Of a stretch of 42,322 nucleotides of DNA, positions 6,574 through 37,223 are shown piece after piece. The stretch's first letter is position 1. Each line of letters opens with the position of its first letter. A program made the translations under genes and the position numbers. Origin of the DNA: a virus (Duplodnaviria > Heunggongvirae > Uroviricota > Caudoviricetes); the IMG/VR virus record IMGVR_UViG_2541047730_000004; one strand, 5' to 3'. The notes under the pieces were generated by a model. The model worked only from the letters and a program-made list of their open reading frames with translations, ran no database searches and had not been told where the DNA came from.

Positions 6574-6590
6574 ATTACCTTTCAGGTGAT
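6574..6590. promoter_or_regulatory. Operator-like palindrome ATTACCTTTCAGGTGAT (TTACC-N5-GGTRA family)
   Basis: Matches the motif repeated at 12 or more intergenic sites; an additional half-site lies at 6525-6529. Confidence 0.45.
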
Positions 6591-6626
6591 TCGCAAAACG
6601 TGCTGGATAGCAAACAAATTATTTGA

Positions 6627-6646
6627 TACTGTATAAATATACAGTT
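6627..6646. promoter_or_regulatory. LexA box (SOS box)
   Basis: ATACTGTATAAATATACAGTTA: CTGT-N8-ACAG with an AT-only spacer and consensus-like flanks, ending 6 bp before the ATG at 6652. Confidence 0.75.
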
Positions 6647-6651
6647 ATTGC

Positions 6652-6924
6652 ATGGAGAAGATTAAGATGCAGCAGTATCACTATCCACTGGAAGACGGAT
6701 TTACCGAAAGGATTCACACGCCGGGAGGCGTCAGGTCACTGGTGGAGGGATCGCACTTGATGAAATTACTCCGGGATCTCGATAAGGATGGATTTAATGT
6801 CGATGGCCCACTTGCCGAACTGACTGCACTGATTAACTACGTCACCAGCTCACAGATGTCTATGCGGGATCTGCAAACACATCTCGACTATTGTGCCGAA
6901 CAATTACGAAAACAAACCACATAA
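6652..6924 (+). CDS. Small stand-alone antirepressor-C-terminal-domain protein, candidate SOS-inducible antirepressor
   Basis: Shares a diverged domain (RSLV..S.LM.LL..L..DG..V.G..AELT....YV......M.DLQTH..Y) with the C-termini of both Ant-like proteins at 8074..8730 and 9513..10451. LexA box immediately upstream. Alternative start at 6667 has a well-spaced GGAG RBS. Confidence 0.55.
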   Translation: MEKIKMQQYHYPLEDGFTERIHTPGGVRSLVEGSHLMKLLRDLDKDGFNVDGPLAELTALINYVTSSQMSMRDLQTHLDYCAEQLRKQTT

Positions 6925-6928
6925 AGAA

Positions 6929-6950
6929 AAGGCCGCAAGAGCGGCCTATC
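6929..6950. terminator. Bidirectional terminator between convergent genes
   Basis: GGCCGC-AAGA-GCGGCC hairpin flanked by an A-rich and a T-rich tract. Confidence 0.6.
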
Positions 6951-7674
6951 GTTTCGCTTTGTGCTCGTCCCAGCACGTTTTGCACCATGCCATTAAGCCA
7001 TCCGCATTTTGATTATTAGGGTAAAAACTGGTTCGTTTTCTGCGGACATTACAAATTGGGCACCACTTCATATGGCGTGTATTCTTTGGGCCATCGAGAC
7101 ACCTTGCACACCACTTAGTCAATCCATCTGGATTTTTTGACGATTTCCTGAATTTTCCATATGGAAGGGTTATTCTGCATCGCAAACACTGCTTGCGGGC
7201 ACTTGAAACTTCGTTAGCTGATTCTTCTTTTGACGGCGATACAGAAGGTATTCTTGCTGGCTCTGATACTGCCTGAGGTGCTTTTTTAGGTGACTGAGAC
7301 GATGTGTCATCACCAGGGAATCTTCCATGATATGCCGGACGCGTTGACACTCCAGGTGGAAGCTCTGCTGTAAATGGCTTTGGCTGAATCAGTTGCCTCT
7401 CTTTTGCTAACTCCTGCTGTTTATAATATGTCTGGATTACCGCACTATCATAAGCAGGAGGTGCGGAAATATTAGGCGCATTACCTCCAGTTTTTTGAAA
7501 CTGAGTAGAGGTGTGTTCTATCACCTGTGTACGATTAATCGTTATCTCCCCATCTTCGGTCTTTATCGTTTTGTTATGATTAACGACCGTACGATCAGAG
7601 ATCTTAGTCTTGTTCTGGTTGATAACGTAAATAATCACCGCAACCACACCAACAACTATCCAGAAAACTTCCAT
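6946..7674 (-). CDS. Membrane-anchored protein with tandem Cys-rich (zinc-ribbon-like) repeats; function unknown
   Basis: N-terminal transmembrane helix (VFWIVVGVVAVIIYVI), Pro/Ser-rich linker, then four CxxC pairs in two internal repeats (NPDGLTKWCARC / NADGLMAWCKTC). Confidence 0.55.
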   Translation of the reverse strand: MEVFWIVVGVVAVIIYVINQNKTKISDRTVVNHNKTIKTEDGEITINRTQVIEHTSTQFQKTGGNAPNISAPPAYDSAVIQTYYKQQELAKERQLIQPKPFTAELPPGVSTRPAYHGRFPGDDTSSQSPKKAPQAVSEPARIPSVSPSKEESANEVSSARKQCLRCRITLPYGKFRKSSKNPDGLTKWCARCLDGPKNTRHMKWCPICNVRRKRTSFYPNNQNADGLMAWCKTCWDEHKAKR

Positions 7675-7692
7675 TGCTTTTCCTCACAATAA

Positions 7693-7711
7693 TATTACCT
7701 TAAAGGTAATA
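7693..7711. promoter_or_regulatory. Operator palindrome TATTACC-TTAAA-GGTAATA (perfect 7-5-7)
   Basis: Perfect inverted repeat in the divergent intergenic region between 6946..7674 (-) and 8074..8730 (+). Confidence 0.6.
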
Positions 7712-7742
7712 TCTTGCTTTCAGGTGATCAAGCGTTAAACGC

Positions 7743-7764
7743 AATCAACCAAATACGGTTGATT
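7743..7764. promoter_or_regulatory. Second, different palindrome AATCAACC-AAATAC-GGTTGATT
   Basis: 8-bp perfect inverted arms; distinct from the TTACC/GGTAA motif; same regulatory region. Confidence 0.35.
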
Positions 7765-7786
7765 TTTATATTTATCAGCGTTTATC

Positions 7787-7804
7787 ATTACCTTTGCGGT
7801 AAAT
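7787..7804. promoter_or_regulatory. Operator palindrome ATTACC-TTTGC-GGTAAAT
   Basis: TTACC-N5-GGTAA family. Confidence 0.5.
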
Positions 7805-7894
7805 TTACATCGCACTCCTCTTGTGCCATAGTAATCGGGCACTGGCAAAATCCAGTGCCGGGATTGGTCTCCCGGATTACTAAGTGGCGCATAC

Positions 7895-7917
7895 CACGCC
7901 AGACGTGGTTTTTTTAT
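7895..7917 (+). terminator. Intrinsic terminator-like hairpin inside the 400-bp leader upstream of the AntA-like gene
   Basis: CCACG-CCAGA-CGTGG followed by TTTTTTT; a longer stem-loop (GCACTGG...CCAGTGC) lies at about 7838-7862. Confidence 0.4.
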
Positions 7918-8073
7918 GCGTATAGCACAGTCATGCCAGAATTATGGTGGGCTGAATGGGGGTCCGAAAGGACGCCGGTACCACTTAGGCCGGTAAGACC
8001 AACTCCGTTCAGTTCACCACCATCTGATTGGTCTCAGCGGTGGTGATGTAATTCGCTAAGTGGAGACGCCATC

Positions 8074-8730
8074 ATGAACGCTCAACTCATCCCCGTATTC
8101 AACGGCACTATATCTAACGAAACAGCCCTACTTTGTAATGCCCGCGATCTGCACGCTTTTTTAGGTGTTAAAAAGGTGTTTGCAGCATGGATTACAAATC
8201 GCATATCAGAATACGAATTCATTGAAAATCAAGACTATATTTTGCTTTCCAATTTGGGAAAGCAAACATCTGGTAGAGGCGGCCACAACCGCAAAGAGTA
8301 CCACCTCACCCTTGATACAGCCAAAGAGCTGGCGATGGTCGAGCGTAACGAAAAAGGTCGCCAGGTGCGACGCTACTTCATTGAATGCGAGAAACGTTTA
8401 AGACAACAAGAAACAAAAGTGGAGAAGGTCTTGTCAGGCTTCATGCCCGCCATTATGGAGGCGATCAAGCTGGAAGACAAAAAAGAATACAGCGCCCCAC
8501 TGAAGCCCGGCTACCGTAGCCTGATTCATTCGCCGTCTGGTGTTCTCGGCCTGACGGAGAACTCACTGCTGATGAATTTGCTGAACCAGTTACAGGAAGA
8601 CGGGCATGACGTATCGGGCGCGGCGGCGGAACTGACCACCATGTTCTGCTACATCGTTGGTGTGAGTAAATGCCTGCGTGATATCCAGACGCACGCGGAG
8701 TACATCAACGACAAGGCAGGGTTCTTCTGA
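8074..8730 (+). CDS. Antirepressor, AntA/Bro-N-like N-terminal domain plus shared Ant C-terminal domain
   Basis: N-terminal region (DLHAFLGV...W...[12 protein letters not shown]...[14 protein letters not shown]...RRYFIECEK) is typical of phage antirepressor N-domains; the C-terminal ~75 aa are near-identical to the C-terminus of 9513..10451; RBS GGAGA upstream. Confidence 0.65.
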
Positions 8731-8752
8731 CGGGCGGCGGCACAGGGATGTG
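8498..8752. repeat. Left arm of ~255-bp inverted repeat (about 95% identical to 9489..9746)
   Basis: Direct comparison of the reverse complement: e.g. ggtggtcagttccgccgccgcgcccgatacgtcatgcccgtcttcctgtaactggttcag versus ggttgtcagctccgccgccgcgcccgatacatcatgcccgtcttcctgtaactggttcag. Confidence 0.85.
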
Positions 8753-8795
8753 CTTCTGACATAATCATTTGCGGTGTGATGTAGATTCACGTAAG

Positions 8796-8812
8796 ATTAC
8801 CTTAAAGGTAAA
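8796..8812. promoter_or_regulatory. Operator palindrome ATTACC-TTAAA-GGTAAA overlapping the RBS/start of 8815
   Basis: TTACC-N5-GGTAA family; ends 3 bp before the ATG. Confidence 0.5.
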
Positions 8813-8814
8813 CC

Positions 8815-9039
8815 ATGAGTTTACATGAGGGGGGAAGCATGGAACTGAACATCATCACATTAATGAAAGCGCTTATTGGCGGTGCAGGAAGTGGCTTTGC
8901 TCTTTCTGGCGGGCTGTCTATGATCATACCTACTTTCACAGTGACGACTGGCGTTGCCTACCTTTTTGCCATTACTGGCGGTCTGGCTATGGCAGGTACT
9001 TACATTTTAAAAAAAATGAGTTCCGGTAGTGCAGACTGA
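8815..9039 (+). CDS. Small glycine-zipper membrane protein (cargo; toxin/holin-like or bacteriocin-like)
   Basis: 74 aa, Gly/Ala-rich transmembrane segments (GGAGSGFALSGG, ITGGLAMAG). Lies in the segment bracketed by the inverted repeats. Alternative start at 8839. Confidence 0.45.
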   Translation: MSLHEGGSMELNIITLMKALIGGAGSGFALSGGLSMIIPTFTVTTGVAYLFAITGGLAMAGTYILKKMSSGSAD

Positions 9040-9376
9040 GATCGTACAAGAATCACATTGGTACAATCCACAGACCGCTCAGGAGCTGGCGATCTTTTAT
9101 TGTATCCTTTGCATTGTGTATATAGTAATCCACCTGATATGGGATTTTCTCTCAAAAGAGACTGGTAGGTTTTCTGTTGTTAACCTTCAGTACAAACTGA
9201 ATGAGGTATATTCATCAACCACATTCGCAACGAGTGGTTTTTTCCTCGTTATGTTATGCGACATGAATAACCCTCTTAGAACATCAGATGCGTTTATCAT
9301 ACCGCTTATCTTGGCAATGCTTACTGGATTCATGATATCAATATCCGCAATAGCGCCAAAAAAAGTTAACATTTAA
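9029..9376 (+). CDS. Small polytopic membrane protein (cargo; possible immunity/partner protein)
   Basis: 115 aa with about three hydrophobic helices; start overlaps the previous gene; intrinsic terminator directly downstream. Confidence 0.45.
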   Translation: MQTEIVQESHWYNPQTAQELAIFYCILCIVYIVIHLIWDFLSKETGRFSVVNLQYKLNEVYSSTTFATSGFFLVMLCDMNNPLRTSDAFIIPLILAMLTGFMISISAIAPKKVNI

Positions 9377-9398
9377 GCCCGCACTGCGGGCTTTTTTG
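9376..9398 (+). terminator. Rho-independent terminator
   Basis: GCCCGC-ACT-GCGGGC followed by TTTTTTG. Confidence 0.65.
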
Positions 9399-9433
9399 TG
9401 TCTGCGGATTCCCGCCCTGGCGGCGGTGGCATT

Positions 9434-9462
9434 CGTTAAAAACAAGGCCGCGAAAGCGGCCT
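9434..9462 (-). terminator. Rho-independent terminator downstream of ant
   Basis: GGCCGC-GAAA-GCGGCC hairpin followed on the minus strand by TTGTTTTTAAC; a perfect 12-bp palindrome GTGACATGTCAC (9463-9474) abuts it. Confidence 0.55.
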
Positions 9463-9488
9463 GTGACATGTCACGATAGTTCAGTTTT

Positions 9489-9746
9489 GCACATCCCTGT
9501 GCCGCCGTTCTGTCAGAAGAACCCTGCCTTGTCGTTGATGTACTCCGCGTGCGTCTGGATATCACGCAGGCATTTGCTCACACCAACGATGTAGCAGAAC
9601 ATGGTTGTCAGCTCCGCCGCCGCGCCCGATACATCATGCCCGTCTTCCTGTAACTGGTTCAGCAGATTCATCAGCAGTGAGTGCTCCGTCAGGCCGAGAA
9701 CACCAGACGGAGAATGAATCAGGCTGCGGTAGCCGGGCTTCAGCGG
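9489..9746. repeat. Right arm of ~255-bp inverted repeat (pairs with 8498..8752)
   Basis: See left arm; covers the 3' end of ant on the minus strand plus about 25 bp past its stop codon. Confidence 0.85.
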
Positions 9747-10451
9747 ATAACCATAACATTTTGTCTGTGTTTTAATTGCCTCACGAAGCGCATCTAACAT
9801 CTTGACTGCCACTTCATCATTCTCTGATGCAGATCCAGCAGGGAGATACTCCCCTTCAAGCGGAACCCGAGCAACAAGAGACAACGCTTCGGCGAATTGA
9901 TCTTCATCAATTTCTTTGTACGAACAGCCAAAATGAGATTTCAGTGACGACCACATGGTGATCATCGCCTTAGCCTGTTTTTCTTTTGGCAGAGACTGAC
10001 CGCGACTCATGACGAGTTGTTTAATGGCTTCCTGCTGTTCAGTGGTGATTTTACCCGGCAACGCCTTTTTAGCTTTGCGTGGGTTAACTACATGGCCTTT
10101 AGTCCAGTAATCGTAGAGCACATCGTCACACTCTTCCTGATACTGGATTACCTTGTCGCGGATTTCAGGGCGTACTTTGTTTGGACTGATGCTGTTCAAC
10201 CAAGCTGCCAATTTTCGTAAAGCCATACAAATCATGGCTTGCACCCCACCGGCAGAAGGTATGGTGATTTCCACCATACCCTTCGAGAAGCGTTGAGAAA
10301 TCTTCTTATGTTGAGATTTCCAGTCTAGCCCCATTCCCTCAACGATAGGTTTCATTGGGGTATACGGTTCACCGTTGTGATTGACAACATAAAGCTCTGC
10401 GCCGTGGAATGGCACGTTGATAGTAGATACCGCTGTTGCTATACTCGTCAT
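9513..10451 (-). CDS. Antirepressor (P22 Ant-like position and architecture)
   Basis: 312 aa directly downstream of an Arc-like RHH gene and divergent from a Mnt-like RHH gene (P22 immI layout); N-terminal domain differs from 8074..8730 but the C-terminal ~75 aa are shared. Confidence 0.65.
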   Translation of the reverse strand: MTSIATAVSTINVPFHGAELYVVNHNGEPYTPMKPIVEGMGLDWKSQHKKISQRFSKGMVEITIPSAGGVQAMICMALRKLAAWLNSISPNKVRPEIRDKVIQYQEECDDVLYDYWTKGHVVNPRKAKKALPGKITTEQQEAIKQLVMSRGQSLPKEKQAKAMITMWSSLKSHFGCSYKEIDEDQFAEALSLVARVPLEGEYLPAGSASENDEVAVKMLDALREAIKTQTKCYGYPLKPGYRSLIHSPSGVLGLTEHSLLMNLLNQLQEDGHDVSGAAAELTTMFCYIVGVSKCLRDIQTHAEYINDKAGFF

Positions 10452-10523
10452 GTCGTTAATTCCTATACGTAGTTTTACGATACTGAAGCCCTGACGGTCT
10501 GGCCACCGTTGGGCTTCGCTGTT

Positions 10524-10691
10524 TTATGCCACGCTATTCTTCTCACCAGTGAGTCCATACACTTTCCTCAGCTGATAGATAATCTCTGTATTGAACTTTC
10601 GGCATTCTTTTTCGCCATTTCTTTCAATAGCTAACTTCACATCGTCCGGAAAACGAACTCGTCGTTGACACATCTCTTTTGCTTTTTGCAT
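10524..10691 (-). CDS. Arc-like ribbon-helix-helix repressor
   Basis: MQKAKEMCQRRVRFPDDVKLAIERNGEKECRKFNTEIIYQLRKVY: beta-strand RVRFP followed by two helices, ~56 aa; AGGAGA RBS 6 nt before this ATG. The longer ORF to 10727 would run through the operator palindrome. Confidence 0.65.
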   Translation of the reverse strand: MQKAKEMCQRRVRFPDDVKLAIERNGEKECRKFNTEIIYQLRKVYGLTGEKNSVA

Positions 10692-10705
10692 TTCATATCT
10701 CCTTA

Positions 10706-10720
10706 GCCCCACGGTGGGGC
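10706..10720. promoter_or_regulatory. Operator palindrome GCCCCAC-G-GTGGGGC; first of three CAC(C/G)GTG elements
   Basis: Perfect 7-1-7 inverted repeat between divergent arc-like and mnt-like genes; related elements CACCGTG (10734-10740) and CACGGTG (10759-10765). Confidence 0.55.
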
Positions 10721-10811
10721 AAAACAATTGTCACACCGTGCGTCATTGATGTCAAGCACACGGTGAGGCATACTTCAATCATTGCAAGTAACTCAATATT
10801 TGGTGAAGAAC

Positions 10812-11243
10812 ATGAGCAGAGAAGATCCACAACTAAGGATCAGACTTCCCGTTGAAGTAAAAGAAAAAATAGAAATTTCTGCAAAAGCCAATAAGCGATC
10901 AATGAACGCTGAAATAGTACAACGTCTTGACACCAGCTTTCTGAAAGATATTCATGAAGATGACGTAATTTCTGCTTATGAAGCAAAAATTATTGCAAAC
11001 AATGCACGGCATGAAATATCAAATATTATTTTCAAAAGAACCTTTAATGAAATTAATAAGAAAATAACACTTGGACATACAAGTTTTTATATAAACCTTA
11101 ATGACCTTGAACTGGAATCACTTGCAGATAATGATTACCAGATCATCTTTGAAAAAACATTTAATAAGCTCAATGAACTAGGTTACATCATCTGTGAAAA
11201 CTCATGGGATGCAGATGGTTTTGGAATTGAAATACCTGAATAG
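10812..11243 (+). CDS. Mnt-like ribbon-helix-helix repressor with a long C-terminal extension
   Basis: PQLRIRLPVEVKEKIEISAKANKRSMNAEIVQRL is an Arc/Mnt-type RHH; divergent from arc-ant; the AT-rich C-terminal ~80 aa have no recognisable motif. Confidence 0.6.
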   Translation: MSREDPQLRIRLPVEVKEKIEISAKANKRSMNAEIVQRLDTSFLKDIHEDDVISAYEAKIIANNARHEISNIIFKRTFNEINKKITLGHTSFYINLNDLELESLADNDYQIIFEKTFNKLNELGYIICENSWDADGFGIEIPE

Positions 11244-11285
11244 GAAGAACAAAAGGCGTGTACATATTACACGTCTTTAATACAA

Positions 11286-11897
11286 TTGAAAAACGCCACA
11301 TTACTGATGTATGTTACAACAAGGAGCGATATTTTGAAAACCATATCTATATTAAAGGTTGCATTAGGCGTCGCTATTATTTTGACTCTCTCAATATTGT
11401 TTTATTTTTACCACAAAAAAAATGCTATTGCTCTTGATGGTCACGCGGCAAACTCATTTTTCTCAGAGTACATAGTGCCGCTATCAGGAAGCGGTATAAC
11501 AAATAAATATACTGACTATGACATCAAATATGGAATTGATGATGGGGAGACTATTGTATTACATGTAATCATTAAAAACCTAATGACAGTAAATAAAAAT
11601 ACAGACTTCAACGATAAAAATACAATACATCACAACAACAGCAAAACATTAATTTCTTATAGTAGCAACATCTATACGGATAAATACCTAAAATACATCT
11701 CAGAAGATACAATAAAAGCAACCAGCGAAAAGTTAAAAAACATATATTGTGCATCCGGCAGTTTTCACAAATTATCGCCGCAGGAGCGTTTATTCTACGA
11801 AGCAAGAAAACAACGTAAGTCAATAATATTACATTATTATGCTGATTCAGGGGAGTCACTCATATTTAATATTGGGGTTTCCCCTGAATCATGCTAA
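11286..11897 (+). CDS. AT-rich membrane-anchored protein at the P22 sieA-equivalent position (candidate superinfection-exclusion/defence cargo)
   Basis: Single N-terminal transmembrane helix (ILKVALGVAIILTLSILFYFY) then an Asn/Lys/Tyr-rich domain; strongly AT-rich; sits between the last internal-core gene and mnt, co-oriented with mnt. Start uncertain. Confidence 0.45.
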   Translation: MKNATLLMYVTTRSDILKTISILKVALGVAIILTLSILFYFYHKKNAIALDGHAANSFFSEYIVPLSGSGITNKYTDYDIKYGIDDGETIVLHVIIKNLMTVNKNTDFNDKNTIHHNNSKTLISYSSNIYTDKYLKYISEDTIKATSEKLKNIYCASGSFHKLSPQERLFYEARKQRKSIILHYYADSGESLIFNIGVSPESC

Positions 11898-11908
11898 AGG
11901 CGTTTAAC

Positions 11909-14900
11909 TCACCGCATCACCGGATCCACCTGGTTTATTAGTGGCGCAATCCAGAACAGGTTATTGCCTGGTATCAGAGTTCGGACATTATGCGCAATAC
12001 GATCACCGGCATCACCATTCAACACTCCTGCGGTCACATCAATGATGCTATCCGCAAGACCAAATGACGGTCCGAATAGAGATCCTACGAATCCACGACT
12101 GGCATACCTAGACTGTGTGCCAGTGCCAAATAAAGCCCCCAGCCCAACAGCACCACCAGTAGCCTTTTCAGCCATGTTGTTATATTCTATCAATGGCCCA
12201 AGAATACCGGATCTATCTATACCCTCAAGCACCAGCTTCTCTGGTGACCAGTCAACATTTTTCCCTTTCGATGCTTCTTTTAGCGCATAGACCAGTGAGC
12301 CAAGAGCAATCTGAAATGCAGTGCCATAATAAAATTGCGCAGTTCCTTCCTGTAACCCACCAAGTAGCGCACGGTTGTATGAAGCCGTTGTGAATGATTT
12401 AAACTGAAATATCGTTCGCCCCATTGGAGTACTCGCCCATAAAGGTGTGTCACCAATACCGGGGGTGATGATAGTGTTATTAACGTCTTTCAGAACCGCT
12501 GACTGGAATACTCCGGCAACGTACTGATCGTCCCATTTATCAAAGTTACCAATGTGCCATCCATCAATTACCTCACCATGTTTCTCGAACTCACTGCGAA
12601 TACGCGCAGCCATATTGTCGTTGATACCGAGTTTTGCCATGCGACGTGCAGAAAACGCACCGGACAAAATACCGTCTGACGTGAGCATTCCGTTCATGGA
12701 TTTGTTTATGTCATTAAATCGATCCATGAGTGTCAGCTTGCCGAAGGCATCAGTAATTCGCTCCATTCCTGCTTCGACTGCTGTTGTCCTGGAAGAACTG
12801 TCAACAAGATCACCAATTGCACGAGAACGTGAATGTAGTACAGCTTCCAATCCAATCCCCATCTTCAACATATCTTCTTTGCTGGCCTTAAATGCCGGTG
12901 ATTGGGATATCTGAGAAGCATAGCCTTTCATGGTGTTACGGAAACCATTAACCATAACCCCTCTGGCCAGATCTGGAATAGCTGATACTGTCATTCCACC
13001 GAGTTTGGTCGTGAAGTTCACATCCCGCAGAAAAGCGCCAGCACGAACAAAAAACGAAGACGGATCATCAGGCATCCCATATGTACCAACAAGACGATCG
13101 CGTAATGCTGTTATGTCTCTGAGATCATTTGCTCTTGATTTTGAAAGTCTGGACTGTTCTTTCCGTAATTCCTTTTCGTACTTTCGCATTAATGAATCGA
13201 GTTTACCCTGAGGAACAACTTCACCATTGCTCTCATAACGTGCTTTCAGATTTGCCACACTTTCGTCATATTTCGCCTTTATTTTTTCAGGCACTTCCCG
13301 TAACAGACTGTCATATTCGTCCTCAATTAATTGCAGACGCTCAGTCATAGTTCGTTTGCCAAATGTTCTCGTCAACTCAATTTCTGCTGCCGCTTCACGG
13401 ATATGACGTTGCAGCACGTAATTCACATCACTTTCAAGATAATCCCTGATAAGACTATCAGGAACATTTAATGTTCTTTCTTTCGTACTACCTGCGGCTT
13501 TTACAGAAAATACGCTGACAAAATCCTGTGGAACCTTAGCACCAGTAATTTTATTAATTACGATATCCGCTGCAATTTCAGCATCCTCAGGATCCAGTGT
13601 TTTATTTCCTCTCGACCACCAGTCAACCAAAATACGTCGAAATTTATCGCGTTCACTGATTATTTTTCCAACTTTATATATGCGTGGGAAATAGCTTGCC
13701 TGGCCTAATGCTTTCAGTTCTTCATCTGGCGGCAATAAACCAAGCTTTTGCATTTCAACTTTCACCCGATTTAATACAGTTCGCATCGCCTGCGCCGTTT
13801 CCTGAACAACAGGATTAGCATGCACATCACCGCTTCGCATAGCATTCCCAACCTGCTGACGAAATGAATCAAAACTCATGTCACCACCATCAGCTTTATA
13901 CTTTGCGTATGCCTGTTTATTTCCGACAACAACAGCAGCTTCTTCACGCTGCCATCCACGTGTACGGGTTTCTACAGCTACCGGTGTTTCAATCCCCCTT
14001 TCATTTCCTTTAAGGGTGAAATTATTTTCGGCTAACTCCAGCGTTGTTTTTCGCACCGTCTTGGACGGAGACTCCATTAACCTTGTCAAAGGAGTAAGAT
14101 AGCTCCCTGCTTTCCATGCAGCCTTTCCAACCCACCCACCGGAAACAGGGGTTAAATCATCCAGAGTCGCTGTATCAATTTTCATAGCACCAACACTACC
14201 ACCATCGGAAAGCGAAGCGGCAGCCCTGTCAGTCACTGATGTAATGCTCATATTATCAAGAGCATCAGCAACCTCACGTGTGGCTGCAGCCCGGACGGAT
14301 GGCGAAAGCGCAACACCAGCACTGGCAAACACGCCGCTCATCATCGCACCCGCTGCAACGTGAGCGGCACTTTCACCCCATGAGCGTGTTATTTGCTGAT
14401 TATTCAGTACAACCTCGCTTAATGCTGTACCGGCAGCACCAATCGCAATCTGTGAGCCAATACGCGCCAGTGCCCCTCCTTGAGCACCGGGAATAAACAT
14501 TGACGCAACAGTAACCGGATCCATTCCCGCAGCAATACTGGCAAGGGTTCCAACTACGCCAGCATCAGACAATAAACGTCTGTCTTCATTTTCATCATCT
14601 ATCTGCTGCTTAATCCACGCCGTTTCCTCTGGCGATCGGGAATCTGCAAATTTCGCCCCCCAGTATTCATAACCGTGCAACTCATTTTTATCAGCATATG
14701 GGTTATAACCCTCGACCGGTTCAAACTGTCTGGCTGGGCGGAAAAAACCAGACAGAATATTGTTCTGTCGCATTGCAGCCCCCCATACGGAAGGCTCAGG
14801 TGGCAATGGCTCAGGATTAGCCCCTTCCGGAAGGGCAACATCAAACCCAGTTTGTTCCGGCAAAACATTACCTGACGGGATCAGTCCGTTATTAAGATCT

Positions 14901-26946: not shown

Positions 26947-26966
26947 TTATTACCTTTCAGGTAACT
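26947..26966. promoter_or_regulatory. Operator palindrome ATTATTACC-TTTCA-GGTAACT upstream of the virion operon
   Basis: TTACC-N5-GGTAA family; a TTGACA hexamer lies at 26928-26933 on the plus strand. Confidence 0.5.
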
Positions 26967-27286: not shown

Positions 27287-27363
27287 GTGGCATTAGCTCA
27301 GTTGGACAGAGCAACCGCCTTCTAAGCGGTTGGTCGCAGGTTCGAATCCTGCATGCCACGCCA
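27287..27363 (+). tRNA. tRNA-Arg (anticodon UCU, reads AGA)
   Basis: Cloverleaf by hand: acceptor GTGGCAT/ATGCCAC, D-arm GCTC..GAGC, anticodon stem ACCGC/GCGGT with loop CTTCTAA, T-arm GCAGG-TTCGAAT-CCTGC, discriminator G, encoded CCA. Confidence 0.85.
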
Positions 27364-27449: not shown

Positions 27450-27526
27450 CAGCAGGACGCCATTGCGATGACTTCATGCTGTAAACCAGTACAGCCACGG
27501 AAGGCATAACTCATTGCTTCCAGTTC

Positions 27527-27582: not shown

Positions 27583-27585
27583 ATC

Positions 27586-30540: not shown

Positions 30541-30587
30541 TATTCAAAACCCGTCAAATTCATCATGCATAATCTACTCGTGACATG

Positions 30588-30929
30588 TCACACTATTAAT
30601 TTCGTTTCATGCCAGCCTTTAGTCACCCAGCATTGTGAGTCACCATTACACGGACATGAATTAACTGGAACTCTCTCGCCGCACTTACCGCAACGTGTTC
30701 TGCTGATCGATTTTATACGCCCGTGCACGCGTGCATCATCCTGGCGGATCAGTAACGCTATATACTCACCAAATTCGTAAGGCGCACGCCCGGGGCGACG
30801 CGTGGCACAGTTACGCTCCAGAATTTCAATTTCCTGAGCATCAAGCACAATCTCCAGCTTACGCACACCAGATGCAGCTTGTCTGGCTCTCTGAGCGGCT
30901 TTGCGCTCTGCTGCTGATTTAGCCATCAA
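30588..30929 (-). CDS. Small Cys-rich protein upstream of terminase (possible late regulator)
   Basis: 113 aa; basic N-terminus and C-terminal cluster CGKCGERVPVNSCPCNGDSQC; no His residues for an HNH call. Confidence 0.45.
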   Translation of the reverse strand: MMAKSAAERKAAQRARQAASGVRKLEIVLDAQEIEILERNCATRRPGRAPYEFGEYIALLIRQDDARVHGRIKSISRTRCGKCGERVPVNSCPCNGDSQCWVTKGWHETKLIV

Positions 30930-30953
30930 TATTTACCTTTATCGCGAACATAC

Positions 30954-31175
30954 TTAGCTGTGTGTTGCCGATGTGCGGAGATTCTCTTCTATCAATTCCA
31001 CGCATTCTGACCGACGAACAAATAATTCGTCTCCGTTATGAATTACGACATAGCCGTAAGCGGTTTTACGCATCACATCGAACTCATCCCATACGGAAAT
31101 ACCGCACTCTGCTAACGAGCAATCCAAATAATCTTCCGGATGCTTGTCGGTGTTATTAATGATGCGAATCCTCAA
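30954..31175 (-). CDS. Hypothetical protein
   Basis: 73-aa ORF in the minus-strand early/nin-like block. Confidence 0.35.
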   Translation of the reverse strand: MRIRIINNTDKHPEDYLDCSLAECGISVWDEFDVMRKTAYGYVVIHNGDELFVRRSECVELIEENLRTSATHS

Positions 31176-31205
31176 ATCTTTTCACCTTTAAGGATAAGTT
31201 GCATG

Positions 31206-32063: not shown

Positions 32064-32073
32064 TCGTTATGCC

Positions 32074-32313
32074 TCAATACACAAAATCTGTTTTAAATTC
32101 ATGGTTACATTCTGGGCAGCATGTTTCGTAACCTTTTATTTCTTCACATGCCTGTTTTGCTCCAGAAAATTCCCAGAAATCAGCATCGCAAAGCAGATCG
32201 AAATTGTGGCCGCATTTGGGACATTCGGTATCAAGTGAAAGACTCCAGTAAGCAGTGGTGTTTTTATCCATATCACTCTCCTTTACCCGCTGCTTTCGCC
32301 TGCTCTTTAGCAA
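32074..32313 (-). CDS. Small zinc-ribbon protein
   Basis: Two CxxC pairs (CPKCGHNF ... CCPECNHEF) in 79 aa. Confidence 0.45.
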   Translation of the reverse strand: MLKSRRKQRVKESDMDKNTTAYWSLSLDTECPKCGHNFDLLCDADFWEFSGAKQACEEIKGYETCCPECNHEFKTDFVY

Positions 32314-32536
32314 GTCGATCCGCTTCTCTGAAATCCCAATCCACTCGATGTGCTATATCAATTGCAGAACGCACGGTCCGTTCAATTAGCGTGTCCAGAT
32401 TATCAATTGTCATTGCCATATCTGGATTGCGAGATAAAATCTCCGCCCTCTGAATCTGCCAGTTGTTGCAGGTTTCAAGTAATGAGTTAGCCATATCACT
32501 CTCCTTTGATACGAATGCCAGCGGCGCGGATTGCAT
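32273..32536 (-). CDS. Hypothetical small protein
   Basis: 87-aa ORF overlapping neighbours in the operon. Confidence 0.35.
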   Translation of the reverse strand: MQSAPLAFVSKESDMANSLLETCNNWQIQRAEILSRNPDMAMTIDNLDTLIERTVRSAIDIAHRVDWDFREADRLAKEQAKAAGKGE

Positions 32537-33245
32537 CGATGACTTCAGAAACTTTGTATGCCATTACCGTTTGGTAATCATCGTGAAAATCTGTTCGATG
32601 AAGCATGCTGCTACGTTCCGGGAGCGATATTTCCCGAGCATCCAGTTCCTTAACGCGTTCCTCCAGTTCGTAGACCCTGCATTGTTCTCTATCATCAATC
32701 AGATATAACCCAAGACATTCGCTTTCTACCCAACCACCAAAATCATGATCGTAACGCTCACATGAAAACTCACCGTCACCGTCCTTTGTTGGAATGGTGT
32801 AACTATCTAATGGGCCACCATACGTCGGCACATTTCCCAATGTTGGATGCTCAATCCACATGAAAAATGCACGTCCGGTTATTGGGCAAATATCTGGCCG
32901 CCATTGGTTACGAACAGCCTTGGTTTCAGATAATTCTTCAGCGTGTTGTTTTACTTCCTCAAGCTCAACTCTCAGCTTCCCAACCGTAAGAGCAATATCC
33001 TCGTTCTCCTGGTCGCGGCGTTTGATGTATTGCTGGTTTCTTTCCCGTTCATCCAGTAGTGCCAGCACGGTTTCTGATCCGGCCAGAAATTTGAAGGCGT
33101 TGAGCGCATCAATATCCACACCGTAATCCTTAAGTTCCTGTTCAGTTAACAAATCATCATCAACTGGCAACATTAACAGGCGTTCCATTGCCGGAATTGC
33201 ACGCTCTGCCGCCTCACGCAGTGCCTGATAATCAATCTTGCTCAC
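32496..33245 (-). CDS. Ead/Ea22-like protein
   Basis: Acidic coiled-coil N-terminus and composition typical of lambdoid Ea22-like early proteins; position. Confidence 0.5.
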   Translation of the reverse strand: MSKIDYQALREAAERAIPAMERLLMLPVDDDLLTEQELKDYGVDIDALNAFKFLAGSETVLALLDERERNQQYIKRRDQENEDIALTVGKLRVELEEVKQHAEELSETKAVRNQWRPDICPITGRAFFMWIEHPTLGNVPTYGGPLDSYTIPTKDGDGEFSCERYDHDFGGWVESECLGLYLIDDREQCRVYELEERVKELDAREISLPERSSMLHRTDFHDDYQTVMAYKVSEVIDAIRAAGIRIKGE

Positions 33246-33766
33246 TGGTTGCCTCCTTTGCGAAGCTGTTCAGCAATACTTACGCATATCTCTGCGCCTC
33301 TAATCAGCCCCGGAACGTTCTTGTTTGGCCCAACTTCACCATCGACAAAATCAATCATCGCGTTACGAGCCATATCCACACCCTGCGCCCGCACTTCAGC
33401 AAGGGAGGCGTCGGTGGCTGGGGTTTCTGGCATACAGTCAGCAGCGTCGAAATACTCTTCACTTTTGTCATCCCAAATCCAGCAATCATCTTTGATGAAC
33501 TTGTTCAGCCCCGCATTCTCCGCCGCCAGCGCCGAAAACTTCTCGTGTGCCAACTTAACAGCCGAATCAGCCTGCTTAATTGACTCAATCGCTCTCTGGT
33601 GGTCTTCGGCCAGCGCATTAGCACGCACCAGTTGCACTTCCAGTTGCGCTGCCAAATCGCTGATCAGCTTTGCCACACTGCGCATATCAACGGCACCACA
33701 TTCTGCTTTCAGTTCCGAAGCCATCTCATGCCCGGCGGCAACTAACCCTTTGATATTACTTTCCAT
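33242..33766 (-). CDS. Hypothetical early protein
   Basis: 174-aa ORF coupled to the downstream gene. Confidence 0.45.
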   Translation of the reverse strand: MESNIKGLVAAGHEMASELKAECGAVDMRSVAKLISDLAAQLEVQLVRANALAEDHQRAIESIKQADSAVKLAHEKFSALAAENAGLNKFIKDDCWIWDDKSEEYFDAADCMPETPATDASLAEVRAQGVDMARNAMIDFVDGEVGPNKNVPGLIRGAEICVSIAEQLRKGGNQ

Positions 33767-33827
33767 CTTTACCCTCGCTTATCCACATAACTTATTGATT
33801 ACATTGATAACTAAAAAGATCGTCTAT

Positions 33828-34172
33828 TCAGAACTCTTCGATGTTCCAGCCACCACCTGCTTTCTTTGGCTTAACCGTTACCCCGATGATTCGGAACGGA
33901 TACTGATCTGCGGCGACTTTGGTTTTCACCCTGGCGTCGTCGGTCCAGAAACCTTTCACTTCGTGCAGTTCCATCTCGCCGGTGGCGAGCATCACAGCAA
34001 AATCGGGCGTATAGAACGTGTTGTCAGCTAACCGCAACTTGATACCCTCGAATCGATACCAGGCGATTTCCCCTGCACGTTTACGCTGCTCAAGGTGCTG
34101 GCAATACGCAGATTCTGTTTTGTTCATCTGGCCTGTTTTGAGTCGACCAAGAGCCTGTATCTGTTTTCTCAT
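33828..34172 (-). CDS. Small putative nuclease-like protein (nin region)
   Basis: 114 aa with ...TPDF...E.HEVKG... resembling small PD-(D/E)xK-type phage nucleases; first gene after the replication module. Confidence 0.4.
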   Translation of the reverse strand: MRKQIQALGRLKTGQMNKTESAYCQHLEQRKRAGEIAWYRFEGIKLRLADNTFYTPDFAVMLATGEMELHEVKGFWTDDARVKTKVAADQYPFRIIGVTVKPKKAGGGWNIEEF

Positions 34173-34235
34173 GATTTACCCCTGAGGTAATTAAAAACCA
34201 CATAAGACACGAAATCAATAGATCTTAGAACATTT

Positions 34236-34254
34236 TATTACCTAGCAGGTAATA
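34236..34254. promoter_or_regulatory. Operator palindrome TATTACC-TAGCA-GGTAATA (perfect 7-5-7)
   Basis: Between the P-like gene end and the nin-like block. Confidence 0.55.
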
Positions 34255-34289
34255 ATCAAAACGTAAAAAAATGCGCTATCGCGCTGGTA

Positions 34290-35090
34290 TTACTTGATAA
34301 ATCCTGCCGCCTTTCCCCGCCTGTATTCCTCCATCAGCCACTGCGCCGGTGTTATTCCCCCCAGGGTAGCGGCGTTAGGCATACACCCGAAACTTCGCCC
34401 TGGTGGATGGTAAACGTCTCTCCCTGTGTCCGGAGGCGTACTCATGGGTTCTGGCTTTGCCTGTATGCTGATCACCGGATCGGGTATCTGCTGTCCGGAA
34501 GCCACCTTTTTCGCCCAATCATCAAGCAGCCTGCGCGCGTGTTTCTCAACCTCAATCTCGCTAAGCTGGCGCTGATACATTGCACGGCGGGTATCACATA
34601 CGACCCAGTACATAACCGGATGCCGCCACGGGAATCTTTCGGGACCACCAGGATATAAACTTTTTTCCTTGCTATACCGGTGAAACTCCGCCATCACATC
34701 GTCAATGGTGACGCCAAGAACCATCTTGCTGTCTTTACACCACTTGATAAATTGCCCTGGCGACGGCCAGAACGGAGATTCACTGGCGCGGGCGTGGCGC
34801 ATACCAGCAGAAACCTGTTCACGGGTTCGGATCCCCCCTTCGGCAAACGCAGCAATCCACTGCTGTTTTGCAGCAACTTCCTGCTCTGGCGTCTTCAGGT
34901 TGGTTACCACTGCCGCCGGAAACAGTTGTTTCAACTGTTTGAAAAGGGCATCAACAAGCCTCTCTGCTGACATGTTCACTACGTTGTCATTGTTGGTGTA
35001 CTGATGCTCATAACCTGACATGCGAGAAAGGGCTTCTCCGTCACGGTTTTGTATCGCGGTAAAAACGTTGTTCACAAGAAATCCTCCCAT
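34290..35090 (-). CDS. Replication protein P-like (DnaB helicase loader)
   Basis: QQWIAAFAEGGIRTREQVSAGMRHARASESPFWPSPGQFIKWC aligns with lambda P (RRQWVLAFRENGITTMEQVNAGMRVARRQNRPFLPSPGQFVAWC). True start may be the internal Met at about 35021. Confidence 0.8.
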   Translation of the reverse strand: MGGFLVNNVFTAIQNRDGEALSRMSGYEHQYTNNDNVVNMSAERLVDALFKQLKQLFPAAVVTNLKTPEQEVAAKQQWIAAFAEGGIRTREQVSAGMRHARASESPFWPSPGQFIKWCKDSKMVLGVTIDDVMAEFHRYSKEKSLYPGGPERFPWRHPVMYWVVCDTRRAMYQRQLSEIEVEKHARRLLDDWAKKVASGQQIPDPVISIQAKPEPMSTPPDTGRDVYHPPGRSFGCMPNAATLGGITPAQWLMEEYRRGKAAGFIK

Positions 35091-35887
35091 GCTTCAGGGC
35101 TGTTCCAGTGCGGAACGTTGTTATCAGGTAATGTTGATTGCTTCTGTCTGCTAATCTGCAGCCGCCTTGCCAGCTTCTGCTCCCACTGTGCCTGATGGTA
35201 TGCCTTACCCTCAGCCATCCAGTAAATTCTGAACTCTGCAAGTTCCTGTGCCGTTGGCAGACTGTCTAGGTAGATCCCCTGCAATGAGCTTTTCCGAAGA
35301 AAGTCATCTGATGGTTGCCATTGTTCATGCATGACAAATTTGCCTAATTGCCCTGGCCCACCAGGAGGAACAAAGTTATTCATCACGGCGTTGTTTGCGC
35401 CGGGGTCATGAGGCACAGAATCCCCGCTTTTTGTCCTGCTCTCCCTCTCTTGGTTAAATGACTGGTTATATGACTGGTTCTGGATCCCGTTTTTGGGATC
35501 ATTCAACATCCCGTTTTTGGGATCATTCAACATCCCGTTTTTGGGTATATTCCCGTTTTCGGTAACATTACCGCTTTCGGGTTCATTACCCCCTTCCCGG
35601 TTGCCTTTAATGTTCCCGTTTTTGGTTATATTAAGAGAGAAAACCCGCACTCTTTTCGTCGCTCCCTTTCTCTCTCCGGTATCTGAAATAAGCCCCATTT
35701 TCATGAGCGATATAAGCCCGGCCTGCACGGTTTTTTTATTCAGGCAAGTGTCTTTAACGAGGCGTTCTATGCTGGGGTAGCAGAGGTTATATTCATCGGC
35801 TCTGTCAGCCATCGAGAGCAGTATGAGCTTTAATGACGAGCTACCTGGATCTGTCTCCCAGGCCCAATCTGTTGCATGTCTGCTCAT
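35072..35887 (-). CDS. Replication initiator (O-like, winged-helix N-terminus) containing the origin iterons
   Basis: Position directly upstream of the P homologue; HTH-like N-terminus; internal peptide repeat NDPKNGMLNDPKNGMLNDPKNG encoded by the DNA iterons. Confidence 0.7.
   Translation of the reverse strand: MSRHATDWAWETDPGSSSLKLILLSMADRADEYNLCYPSIERLVKDTCLNKKTVQAGLISLMKMGLISDTGERKGATKRVRVFSLNITKNGNIKGNREGGNEPESGNVTENGNIPKNGMLNDPKNGMLNDPKNGIQNQSYNQSFNQERESRTKSGDSVPHDPGANNAVMNNFVPPGGPGQLGKFVMHEQWQPSDDFLRKSSLQGIYLDSLPTAQELAEFRIYWMAEGKAYHQAQWEQKLARRLQISRQKQSTLPDNNVPHWNSPEAWEDFL
35484..35627. repeat. Origin iterons: about 7 copies of (T/A)YCCCGTTTT(T/C)GG
   Basis: Three perfect 24-bp tandem units ATCCCGTTTTTGGGATCATTCAAC followed by degenerate copies, inside the O-like gene. 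Confidence 0.75.
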
Positions 35888-35902
35888 GATTAATCTCCGC
35901 TA

Positions 35903-36103
35903 TCAGCTTGAATGTTGTGGGGAGGAATTAATCATGATCTGCTTAATCTCTGCCCTGATACGACGGTTTGATTCCATGGTGCACTCAACACAGTGTCCAT
36001 TGTAAACCCAGCGTTCACTGTCATGTCCGTGCTTACATGTTTTTCCGGTGTAGTAGCGTTTAAGTCCGCGCTTTGCGGCATCAATACGTGTAATGATTTC
36101 CAT
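35903..36103 (-). CDS. Small zinc-finger protein at the cII-equivalent position
   Basis: Between the cro-like and O-like genes; Cys/His cluster CKHGHDSERWVYNGHCVEC; start taken at MEIITR. Confidence 0.4.
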   Translation of the reverse strand: MEIITRIDAAKRGLKRYYTGKTCKHGHDSERWVYNGHCVECTMESNRRIRAEIKQIMINSSPQHSS

Positions 36104-36182
36104 GGTAAGCCCTGTTATTAGTATTGGGATTACGGTTATTTTGTGCTGACACAAAAAAAAGATCAACCATATTTGGTTTTTT

Positions 36183-36199
36183 ATTACCTTTAAGGTGCG
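36183..36199. promoter_or_regulatory. Operator-like site ATTACC-TTTAA-GGTGCGA
   Basis: TTACC-N5-GGTG; between the cro-like gene and the cII-position gene. Confidence 0.4.
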
Positions 36200-36253
36200 A
36201 ATAGATATGAAAAGACCGCCGGGTGGCGGTCTACAGAGGGGTGTAGCTGGATA

Positions 36254-36484
36254 TCATGAGTAGAAGAAGTATGCCAGTTCTGCTTTTGAGCGCAACCATT
36301 GTCTTGTTTTACAGGCTTTAAAAAGCCCATTCATCAATACTTTACCTGGCATTTTGCGCTTACCTGTTAAGTGAGTCTGGATATAGTGACTCGTCGTTCC
36401 GGCTTCCTGTGCGAAGGCTTCACGCTCATCCGGAGTAAGTGCAAGCCAGTGCTTTTTGAAATCGAAATGTTCGTTATCGCTCAT
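36254..36484 (-). CDS. Cro-like small HTH regulator
   Basis: 76 aa, divergent from the CI-like gene across an operator-containing 154-bp region; HTH-like segment AGTTSHYIQTHLTGKR. Confidence 0.5.
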   Translation of the reverse strand: MSDNEHFDFKKHWLALTPDEREAFAQEAGTTSHYIQTHLTGKRKMPGKVLMNGLFKACKTRQWLRSKAELAYFFYS

Positions 36485-36496
36485 AGCTATTGCCTG

Positions 36497-36520
36497 ATAT
36501 TTATTTCAGATAATAAATAT
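36497..36520. promoter_or_regulatory. AT-rich 9-6-9 palindrome ATATTTATT-TCAGAT-AATAAATAT in the switch region
   Basis: Perfect inverted arms; may be a promoter element or a second operator type. Confidence 0.35.
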
Positions 36521-36550
36521 TCACCCATAAGGTAACAAAAATCAAGGATA

Positions 36551-36585
36551 GTTACCTATGAGGTGCATTTACCTGTTGGGTAATA
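36551..36585. promoter_or_regulatory. OR-equivalent: two adjacent operator sites
   Basis: AGTTACC-TATGA-GGTGCAT and TTTACC-TGTTG-GGTAATA between the cro-like and CI-like genes. Confidence 0.6.
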
Positions 36586-36638
36586 TTGCTTTAAATTGAA
36601 TCATCTACTGATTCATATATGAGGCGATTTTCCAGAAA

Positions 36639-37223
36639 ATGAAAAGTATCCAGGACGTCCGCAGGCAAAATCTCAACGACTTGATCGACCGTGAATTCAA
36701 TGGTGTTCAGACGCGGATGGCAGAAAAACTTGGAACTCAGGCAAATCTGGTAAACCGCTGGGCTCTTGGCAAGAAGGTTATCGGCGACCAGGTTGCGCGA
36801 AAAATTGAAGCTGCCGCCAATAAACCACGTAACTGGCTTGATATCGATCGCTCGCTTTCTCAGGAAGGTTTTCAGCCTGTCGGCCCAAGCGACATTGGTC
36901 AGCTGGCGGCTCACAACCTGGAACGCTGGATGAGCGAAAGCCGCGACCTTTCAACACAGGGAAAACTTCACCGCGCATCCGGCGTCGCCCAGGTGACAAT
37001 CAGCCGCCTGTTAAACAATGAGGTCAGCGTTTCCATTTCCACCCTGGAGAATGTTGCATCCGCATTCGGGCGTCACGGCTATGAATTACTGATTCACCCG
37101 CACGACCCTGCGACCATCAACTATGACCGCTCGCGCTACGCATTGTTACCCGAAACCGAGAAAGCAAAGATCGAAAGTTATATTGAATTTGTCATCAACC
37201 AGAACGAAAAAAACAAACAATAA
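36639..37223 (+). CDS. CI-like repressor with two HTH (XRE-type) segments and no LexA-like peptidase domain
   Basis: HTH-like RMAEKLGTQANLVNRWALGKK and ASGVAQVTISRLLNNEVSVSISTLENVASAFG. No Ala-Gly / GDSM / Lys autocleavage signature. Divergent from cro; terminator and OL-like sites downstream. Confidence 0.65.
   Translation: MKSIQDVRRQNLNDLIDREFNGVQTRMAEKLGTQANLVNRWALGKKVIGDQVARKIEAAANKPRNWLDIDRSLSQEGFQPVGPSDIGQLAAHNLERWMSESRDLSTQGKLHRASGVAQVTISRLLNNEVSVSISTLENVASAFGRHGYELLIHPHDPATINYDRSRYALLPETEKAKIESYIEFVINQNEKNKQ

Follow-up and report, generated by a model that had tools for sequence, protein, structure and literature searches.

A probable SPC32H-type antirepression switch and two further Ant-domain proteins in an epsilon15-like Escherichia coli prophage

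Results

The small antirepressor gene and its start codon

The virus record IMGVR_UViG_2541047730_000004, a stretch of 42,322 nucleotides (nt) that we refer to as the window, carries a short antirepressor gene, ant, and, elsewhere, a prophage repressor gene, rep. Here, we describe the switch that these two genes would form with a binding site for the host LexA protein, as well as two larger antirepressors that share the Ant domain (Table 1). The region around ant is 97–98% identical to the Escherichia phages TL-2011b and phiV10 and 76–79% identical to Salmonella phages of the epsilon15/SPC32H group, and positions 6400–11950 match the E. coli chromosome NZ_OZ547246.1 at 100%. Because of these identities, the window can be assigned to an epsilon15-like prophage of E. 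coli (genus Uetakevirus, phiV10/TL-2011b type). The gene order of phage SPC32H (tailspike, ant, structural genes) is also present here. As in SPC32H, ant is divergent from the tailspike gene and adjoins the structural operon, and rep lies elsewhere, divergent from a cro-like gene.

The product of ant matches chain E of the Protein Data Bank (PDB) entry 5D50, labeled 'Anti-repressor protein', with an E-value of 5e-47 over 84 amino acids (aa), and it is ~87% identical to SPC32H Ant. No significant Pfam match was found for this protein, and its family in PHROGs, phrog_450, is labeled 'unknown function'. TL-2011b has an annotated 85-aa protein at the same locus. In the records of phiV10/TL-2011b-type phages that we examined, the small ant is labeled 'hypothetical', and its identification is useful for annotation. 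These prophages are common in pathogenic E. coli. Partial matches to prophages of this type occur in 1297 of 5426 complete genomes.

Where does the ant reading frame begin? The original prediction had the gene start at position 6652 and encode 90 aa. A Shine-Dalgarno sequence, GGAG (6654–6657), is well placed for a different start codon, the ATG at 6667. The ATG at 6652 is part of a conserved ATGGAG and is out of frame with ant in TL-2011b, SPC32H, and epsilon15. A 1-nt insertion in the window (GATTAAGATG compared with GA-TAAGATG in TL-2011b, within 6652–6669) puts this upstream ATG in frame with ant and thereby produces a misleading call of a 90-aa open reading frame (ORF). Furthermore, the annotated Ants of 85–86 aa and the crystallized chain all begin at the downstream ATG. 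Because of the GGAG spacing, the frame of the upstream ATG in the relatives, and the annotated and crystallized starts, we rejected the start at 6652; translation almost certainly begins at ATG 6667 and yields a protein of 85 aa.

A LexA box upstream of ant

Upstream of ant lies the palindrome TACTGTATAAATATACAGTT, which has two mismatches to the textbook LexA consensus, TACTGTATATATATACAGTA. The window was scored with our own, non-curated LexA weight matrix, which is based on 19 SOS boxes of E. coli. The palindrome scored 27.9 bits, above all 19 of the training sites (maximum 26.9), and the second-best site in the window reached 11.0 bits. When the sequence was shuffled 200 times, the best site per shuffle had a mean score of 12.3 bits with a standard deviation of 2.4. 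One other exact match to CTGT-N8-ACAG is found in the window, at 27479, but its spacer is GC-rich and its score is 8.5 bits. Apart from the palindrome upstream of ant, the 42 kb contain no credible LexA site, and the window scan, with its next-best site at 11 bits, found no further LexA boxes at the genes of the larger antirepressors or at rep.

The position of the box relative to ant is also conserved. We compared ten loci from phages of E. coli, Salmonella, Enterobacter, and Klebsiella: the window, TL-2011b, phiV10, SPC32H, SPC32N, epsilon15, Tyrion, BUCT554, and two Klebsiella phages. In ten out of ten, the top-scoring site lies 18–20 nt upstream of the ant ATG with no rival site close to it, and this spacing is fixed while the flanking sequences diverge. 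The near-consensus box that had been proposed at this place is therefore confirmed by its score, its uniqueness in the window, and its conserved position. In the alignment of the regions upstream of ant, SPC32H and SPC32N differ at one base only, the C of CAG in the box, which is an A in SPC32N; the matrix score thereby falls from 25.9 to 19.6 bits. This single-base change in the LexA site of SPC32N reportedly makes Ant constitutive. In SPC32H itself, ant is said to be repressed by LexA, and Rep is said to remain uncleaved in the SOS response.

The repressor and its predicted operators

The product of rep matches chain A of 5D50, the 'Repressor' chain, over residues 1–190 (E 4e-42) and the C-terminal-domain structure 5D4Z_A (E 4e-20); 5D50 and 5D4Z are the structure entries for the Rep–Ant system of SPC32H. 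The same protein is 100% identical to the phiV10 repressor. Pfam placed an HTH_3 (helix-turn-helix, HTH) domain, matched in two stretches, at residues 106–147 and another HTH-type match at residues 21–61. On the other hand, no match to Peptidase_S24 (PF00717) was found in the Pfam search at E ≤ 1, and the Rep sequence contains no AG, CG, or GDSM, that is, neither an Ala-Gly/Cys-Gly site nor the serine motif. Since Rep consists of two HTH domains and has no S24 protease module, it would not be cleavable through RecA; the earlier description of a repressor with two HTH segments and no autocleavage module was accurate.

The genes ant and rep occur together in related phages. The GenBank record of SPC32H annotates the syntenic genes as ant and rep, and full-length matches to Rep were found in 36 phage records and matches to ant in 35. 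Both searches recovered the same group of phages, which infect E. coli, Salmonella, Enterobacter, and Klebsiella.

We also observed that the palindrome ATTACC-N5-GGTAAT has 17 matches in the window at ≤2 mismatches, compared with 0.87 expected. Three of these lie in the gap between rep and the cro-like gene, two are just downstream of rep, two are upstream of the RNA elements that precede the first large antirepressor gene (described below), and several are at operon starts. The epsilon15 record annotates the same motif as 'repressor' protein_bind sites, one of which is between gp19 (ant) and the tail fiber gene and is the counterpart of the window's palindrome upstream of the LexA box. These sites probably constitute a genome-wide set of Rep operators, as predicted from the motif and its placement.

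Two larger antirepressors with the same C-terminal domain

Two larger proteins, of 218 and 312 aa, end in a domain related to the small Ant. The small Ant aligns to residues 128–210 of the 218-aa protein (43% identity, E 5e-18) and to residues 224–308 of the 312-aa protein (44% identity, E 4e-17), and residues 231–307 of the latter match 5D50_E directly (E 1.3e-13). The two large proteins are near-identical to each other over their last ~85 aa, and the positions that are invariant among small Ants are all retained in both. The small protein had been described as a stand-alone copy of the C-terminal domain of the larger ones, and the identity of 43–44% over ~85 aa bears this out.

The N-terminal parts of the two proteins belong to different families. 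The 218-aa protein has an AntA domain (Pfam, E 4e-26) and matches phrog_377 over its full length. The 312-aa protein matches P22_AR_N (PF10547, E 2.5e-45) but not P22_AR_C in the Pfam search, and its aa 1–222 share 88% identity with Ant of CUS-3, a P22-like phage, whereas its remainder is unrelated to that protein. We considered whether the C-terminal domain of P22-type Ant might be distant kin of the SPC32H Ant domain and rejected this, as hhalign against CUS-3 Ant gave a probability of 0.2%.

How widespread is the Ant domain? When 1.84 billion representative proteins were searched exhaustively with a profile, only 65 clusters that contain it were recovered, either as stand-alone proteins of ~85–95 aa or as C-terminal fusions of 150–319 aa. 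In the fusions, it is joined to AntA, Bro-N, Phage_pRha, or ORF6N and, in the 312-aa protein of the window, to P22_AR_N. A word-indexed homologue search with the small Ant returned close stand-alone Ants only; the fused forms were seen by the profile search. PHROGs places the fused forms in 'anti-repressor Ant' families (phrog_377, phrog_245, and phrog_1760).

The ends of the two large genes that encode the Ant domain form an inverted repeat of 235 nt with 96% identity. Such high identity suggests recent recombination or gene conversion, and the repeat could allow inversion of the segment between its arms. The 780 nt between the arms contain two small membrane-protein ORFs (8815..9039 and 9029..9376). 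In TL-2011b (10669–11214) and several E. coli prophages, a gene for a YafO-family toxin, not membrane ORFs, is found between the large antirepressor genes. This segment is a variable cargo slot.

Control modules of the large antirepressor genes

The two large genes had been described as constitutive-looking. This reading was rejected, since each of them has a recognizable control module: isrK-type and C4-type RNAs at the 218-aa gene and an mnt/arc/sar cassette at the 312-aa gene.

Upstream of the 218-aa gene, the isrK-type small RNA has a promoter-like site (7804–7832) and its own terminator (7893–7909). The loop of the C4-type element, CCACTTAG (7981–7988), is perfectly complementary to CTAAGTGG at 8056–8063, which overlaps the Shine-Dalgarno sequence of the 218-aa gene, and the octamer CTAAGTGG also occurs inside the isrK element (7880–7887). 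This arrangement suggests that IsrK may be a decoy that relieves C4-type repression. The cassette of isrK, C4, and antirepressor is also present in TL-2011b, phiV10, Tyrion, and a Klebsiella phage. Across these phages, loop and target covary: CCTTTTAG goes with CTAAAAGG in TL-2011b and phiV10, CCTTTGTAG goes with CTACAAAGG in Tyrion, and the Klebsiella phage has a G:U-compatible variant. We also noted that the C4 loop sequence (8–9 nt), the ribosome-binding site (RBS) of the antirepressor gene, and a single-stranded stretch of isrK change together across phages.

The 312-aa gene is the second gene of an arc–ant operon. A sar-type antisense RNA, with a promoter-like site at 10417–10445 and a terminator at 10496–10515, covers the arc–ant junction and is also present in TL-2011b. 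No Pfam match was found for the 55-aa product of the arc-like gene. In the TL-2011b record, the two genes at the corresponding place are labeled 'Arc-like repressor' and 'anti-repressor Ant'.

Neighboring features

The receptor-binding part of the tailspike is unlike those of phiV10 and TL-2011b, consistent with an exchange of tailspikes within this group of prophages. The product of the 242-aa ORF that is convergent with ant has a hydrophobic N-terminal segment and a Cys-rich, zinc-finger-like C-terminal region, with weak matches to the endonuclease VII/HNH and Lar-like families; the equivalent stretch of TL-2011b is annotated as a misc_feature only. Between the two genes, a GC-rich hairpin is likely a bidirectional terminator, and the epsilon15 record has an annotated terminator at the matching place. 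A tRNA-Arg gene of the prophage lies between two of the operator-like palindromes, those at 26950 and 27567.

Table 1. Features of the window discussed in the text, with coordinates, strand, and the match or note on which each entry is based; a dot marks a feature without strand.
Feature	Coordinates	Strand	Match or note
ant, small antirepressor, 85 aa	6667..6924	+	5D50_E match; phrog_450
LexA (SOS) box TACTGTATAAATATACAGTT	6627..6646	.	20 nt upstream of ant ATG
rep, prophage repressor, 194 aa, two HTH domains	36639..37223	+	5D50_A match
cro-like gene, divergent from rep	36254..36484	-	phrog_35 'transcriptional repressor', 5.7e-13
Operator-like palindrome TTACCTTTCAGGTGA in the tailspike–ant intergenic region	6575..6589	.	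~40 bp upstream of LexA box
Three operator-like palindromes (36521, 36552, 36569) in the rep–cro intergenic region	36521..36583	.	
ATTACC-N5-GGTAAT-type 15-nt sites	6575, 7695, 7788, 8797, 26950, 27567, 34176, 34238, 36184, 36521, 36552, 36569, 37281, 37343		
Large antirepressor 1, 218 aa: AntA N-terminal domain and SPC32H-Ant-like C-terminal domain	8074..8730	+	
isrK-type small RNA with own terminator	7839..7915	+	Rfam RF01394, 67.7 bits (gathering 50)
C4-type antisense RNA element	7940..8024	+	Rfam RF01695, 61.2 bits (gathering 45)
Large antirepressor 2, 312 aa: P22_AR_N part and SPC32H-Ant-like C-terminal domain	9513..10451	-	
sar-type antisense RNA over the arc–ant junction and ant RBS	10453..10520	+	Rfam RF00262, 45.2 bits (gathering 43), marginal
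arc-like ribbon-helix-helix repressor, 55 aa, first gene of the arc–ant operon	10524..10691	-	phrog_228 'Arc-like repressor', 3.4e-5
Pant-like promoter TTGACA-17-GACAAT with TG, driving arc–ant	10727..10755	-	promoter scan, 10/12 matches
mnt-like repressor, 143 aa, N-terminal Arc/ribbon-helix-helix domain, divergent from arc–ant	10812..11243	+	Pfam Arc 1.1e-14; phrog_1388 full length
235-nt inverted repeat, 96% identity, Ant-domain coding ends of the two large genes	8497–8731 and 9512–9746	.	
Tailspike, 991 aa	3495..6470	-	C-terminal endosialidase-chaperone (Peptidase_S74) signature, weak endosialidase match
242-aa ORF convergent with ant	6946..7674	-	phrog_6762 full length
GC-rich hairpin between convergent ant and the 242-aa ORF	6930..6947	.	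terminator scan
tRNA-Arg (anticodon UCU, reads rare AGA codon)	27287..27363	+	

Discussion

A probable switch of the SPC32H type

We propose, with a probability that we put at about 88%, that this epsilon15-like E. coli prophage uses an SPC32H-type antirepression switch and that its two further Ant-domain proteins likely act on the same Rep. Lysogeny would be held by Rep, probably bound at the ATTACC-N5-GGTAAT operators, and the host LexA, bound at the box just upstream of the ant RBS, would silence ant. Upon DNA damage, RecA would become active, LexA would cleave itself, and ant would be transcribed. The 85-aa Ant would then bind Rep and dismantle its DNA-binding oligomer; consequently, Rep would come off the operators and the lytic genes would be turned on. 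In support of this proposal, we observed that Ant and Rep are homologous to their SPC32H counterparts, that Rep lacks S24, and that the LexA box is strong and conserved.

The proposal is supported because the window's genes are directly homologous to a system that was shown experimentally in phage SPC32H. SPC32H Rep is tetrameric when bound to DNA, and Ant, likewise a tetramer, disrupts this assembly upon binding two Rep dimers (PMC9638917). In several Salmonella prophages, LexA self-cleavage permits the synthesis of an antirepressor, which inactivates the lysogenic repressor (PMC7380047, citing Kim & Ryu 2013 among others). Thus, the central idea of the original prediction, that SOS induction is routed through a LexA-repressed antirepressor rather than through autocleavage of the repressor, agrees with the homology of both Ant and Rep to the SPC32H system, the synteny, and the conserved box. 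However, since the closely homologous SPC32H system has been characterized both experimentally and structurally, the mechanism is not new; the core switch is already known, its genetics having been worked out in 2013 and its structure in 2016, both in a sister phage (Kim & Ryu 2013, J Virol 87:11775; Kim et al. 2016, PNAS 113:E2480).

Several points weigh against this interpretation. LexA binding, Ant–Rep binding, and SOS inducibility would follow by extension from the SPC32H experiments. Rep is only 41.8% identical to SPC32H Rep, compared with the much closer Ant, and conservation of the Ant–Rep interface is assumed. A simple promoter scan finds no consensus sigma-70 promoter for the small ant. 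The box had been placed directly on the promoter and RBS of the small gene: it is indeed just upstream of the RBS, but its overlap with the promoter is something that we infer, and it is a guess that the invariant TGGATA-17-TACTGT could serve as the promoter. The palindrome upstream of ant hints that there may be a second layer of control, by Rep, which is outside the model. Finally, the activity of the large Ants is backed by one kind of experiment, overexpression in phage vB_EcoP_ZX5, as described next.

The target of the large antirepressors

Could the two larger proteins act on the same repressor as the small Ant? The Ant domain was found in 34 of 50,697 phage records, and the Rep family is encoded in all 34 of them. 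The large-type C-terminal domain is 90–100% identical among E. coli phages with identical Rep, and its identity is 74% in Tyrion (Rep 78%) and 52% in the Klebsiella phages (Rep 45%). Phage vB_EcoP_ZX5 has a Rep identical to that of the window and a Bro-N protein, the 'ORF4 anti-repressor', whose C-terminal domain is 93% identical. When ORF4 was overexpressed, the lysogen titer went from 10^9 to 10^6 and rep transcription was down by 75% (PMC9782041); the same paper makes no mention of LexA, SPC32H, or the small ant, nor does it remark on the domain that the large and small proteins share. The large Ants, therefore, most likely have this Rep as their target, too, and serve anti-immunity during infection or superinfection rather than sensing of the SOS response, and three differently wired antirepressors would probably converge on one repressor.

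Alternatively, the large Ants might hit the heteroimmune Reps of other resident prophages rather than their own Rep, in the manner of the Gifsy/Fels-2 cross-talk. Trans-acting antirepressors are documented in Salmonella (PMC3121763). Furthermore, the C-terminal domain of the large proteins shares only 43–44% identity with the phage's own small Ant and has a motif in common with the small Ants of other genera. On the other hand, the domain is near-invariant among the E. coli Uetakeviruses with identical Rep and, in Tyrion and the Klebsiella phages, diverges together with Rep, the overexpression of ORF4 altered ZX5's own lysogeny, and the Ant domain never occurs without Rep in the phage database. 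Cross-talk is thus unlikely, although it deserves some weight.

Another possibility is that the C-terminal domain is a mere tetramerization module and that the N-terminal Bro-N, AntA, or P22_AR_N part acts on a target other than Rep. SPC32H Ant is itself tetrameric, and the N-terminal partners of the domain come from five unrelated families (AntA, Bro-N, Rha, ORF6N, and P22_AR_N), both of which would fit such a role. However, a general oligomerizer would not explain the strict co-occurrence of the domain with the Rep family or the retention of every invariant small-Ant position in the large proteins, and the clean swap of the C-terminal ~90 aa relative to CUS-3 Ant fits a cassette for target specificity better. 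We regard this alternative as improbable.

Far less credible is that Rep is inactivated directly in the SOS response, through non-canonical RecA-dependent cleavage or a host protease, with the small gene being only accessory. P22 shows that an antirepressor and a cleavable repressor can coexist, but we found no support for this scenario here. Rep contains neither an S24 domain nor an Ala-Gly or Cys-Gly site, it is homologous over its full length to a repressor that, in the crystal, is built from two HTH domains, and the box mutation of SPC32N matches a constitutive-lysis phenotype, as it is reported. Least of all would we expect the LexA palindrome to be a chance match, or to serve the divergent tailspike gene, whose start is 157 nt away across the shared intergenic region, given its uniqueness in the window, its score far above the shuffles, and its constant 18–20 nt spacing from the ant ATG in phages of four host genera despite diverging flanks.

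Returning to three antirepressors acting on one Rep, we tentatively put forward a broader model, to which we give slightly less than even odds. One non-self-cleaving repressor would be the target of three antirepressors that share a portable Rep-binding domain of ~80 aa and are gated separately, by LexA, by IsrK/C4, and by Mnt/Arc/sar. The C-terminal domain would be a specificity cassette that was recently grafted onto P22-like and P1/Gifsy-like scaffolds; recent grafting is suggested by the 96% identity of the 235-nt inverted repeat. Such a prophage would be a natural example of modular antirepressor evolution, with one Rep-binding domain placed behind LexA, antisense-RNA, and Mnt/Arc locks. 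It also raises the idea that an Ant/Bro/Rha-type protein owes the choice of its target repressor to its C-terminal domain.

In the literature searched, we found no account of three inputs that act on one target in this way, and Kim & Ryu 2013 may mention fused homologues. The original prediction had not recognized the relationship between a small SOS-controlled protein and two larger Ants as one already described. That relationship is real, but the mechanism is known, and both large genes are behind known control modules. What stays modestly new, apparently, is that three differently gated antirepressors with one portable Rep-directed domain are present in a single prophage.

Comparison with known systems

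The closest known system is the Rep–Ant–LexA switch of SPC32H. It shares with the window the genus Uetakevirus, orthologous Ant and Rep proteins, the gene order, and the distance of the LexA box from ant. It differs in that the window's Rep shows considerable divergence and belongs to the phiV10 type. Furthermore, both SPC32H and epsilon15 are without the ~5 kb insert beside ant that carries the two extra Ant-domain antirepressors in the window.

LexA-controlled antirepressors of phage 186 (Tum) and of Gifsy-type prophages had been named as precedents. The small LexA-repressed antirepressors of 186 and of Gifsy-1, Gifsy-3, and Fels-2, with the GfoA-GfhA family of Gifsy among them, likewise act on non-autocleaving repressors (Shearwin 1998; Lemire 2011). 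This comparison holds as an analogy of logic only: no sequence relationship to them was detected for Ant, which had no significant Pfam match, with no direct comparison run. The closest relative of the small protein is SPC32H Ant instead. SPC32H Ant is reportedly distinct in structure from the 186 Tum and Gifsy-type antirepressors. Repressors of the lambda CI, P22 C2, and LexA type share with Rep an N-terminal HTH domain and the role of a maintenance repressor; however, Rep has no S24 domain, Ala-Gly site, or Ser/Lys dyad motif, and its second half is HTH-like.

The control of the first large antirepressor resembles the logic of P1 immI, in which a C4-type RNA is paired with an RBS. As in the P1 c4–icd–ant module and in Gifsy-1 isrK–orf45–anrP, isrK-type and C4-type RNAs lie directly upstream of the gene for an AntA-domain antirepressor. 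In Gifsy-1, the read-through mRNA is translationally silent, and IsrK supplied in trans raises translation of the antirepressor-like AnrP 140-fold (PMC4825925). The window's IsrK carries the C4 target sequence, which fits trans-activation of this kind. A shallow look identified no icd- or orf45-like ORF between the window's C4 element and its antirepressor gene, and, unlike the P1 and Gifsy-1 proteins, the window's antirepressor ends in the Uetakevirus Ant domain.

The cassette of the second large antirepressor corresponds to the immI region of P22 (mnt, Pant/Pmnt, arc, sar, ant) in its P22_AR_N domain, its sar element over the ant RBS, its arrangement of Arc/Mnt-like ribbon-helix-helix genes, and its Pant-like promoter. 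The Mnt-like protein differs from that of P22 in its length of 143 aa, with an extra C-terminal part, and the C-terminal ~90 aa of the P22-type Ant are replaced in the window by the SPC32H-Ant-like domain.

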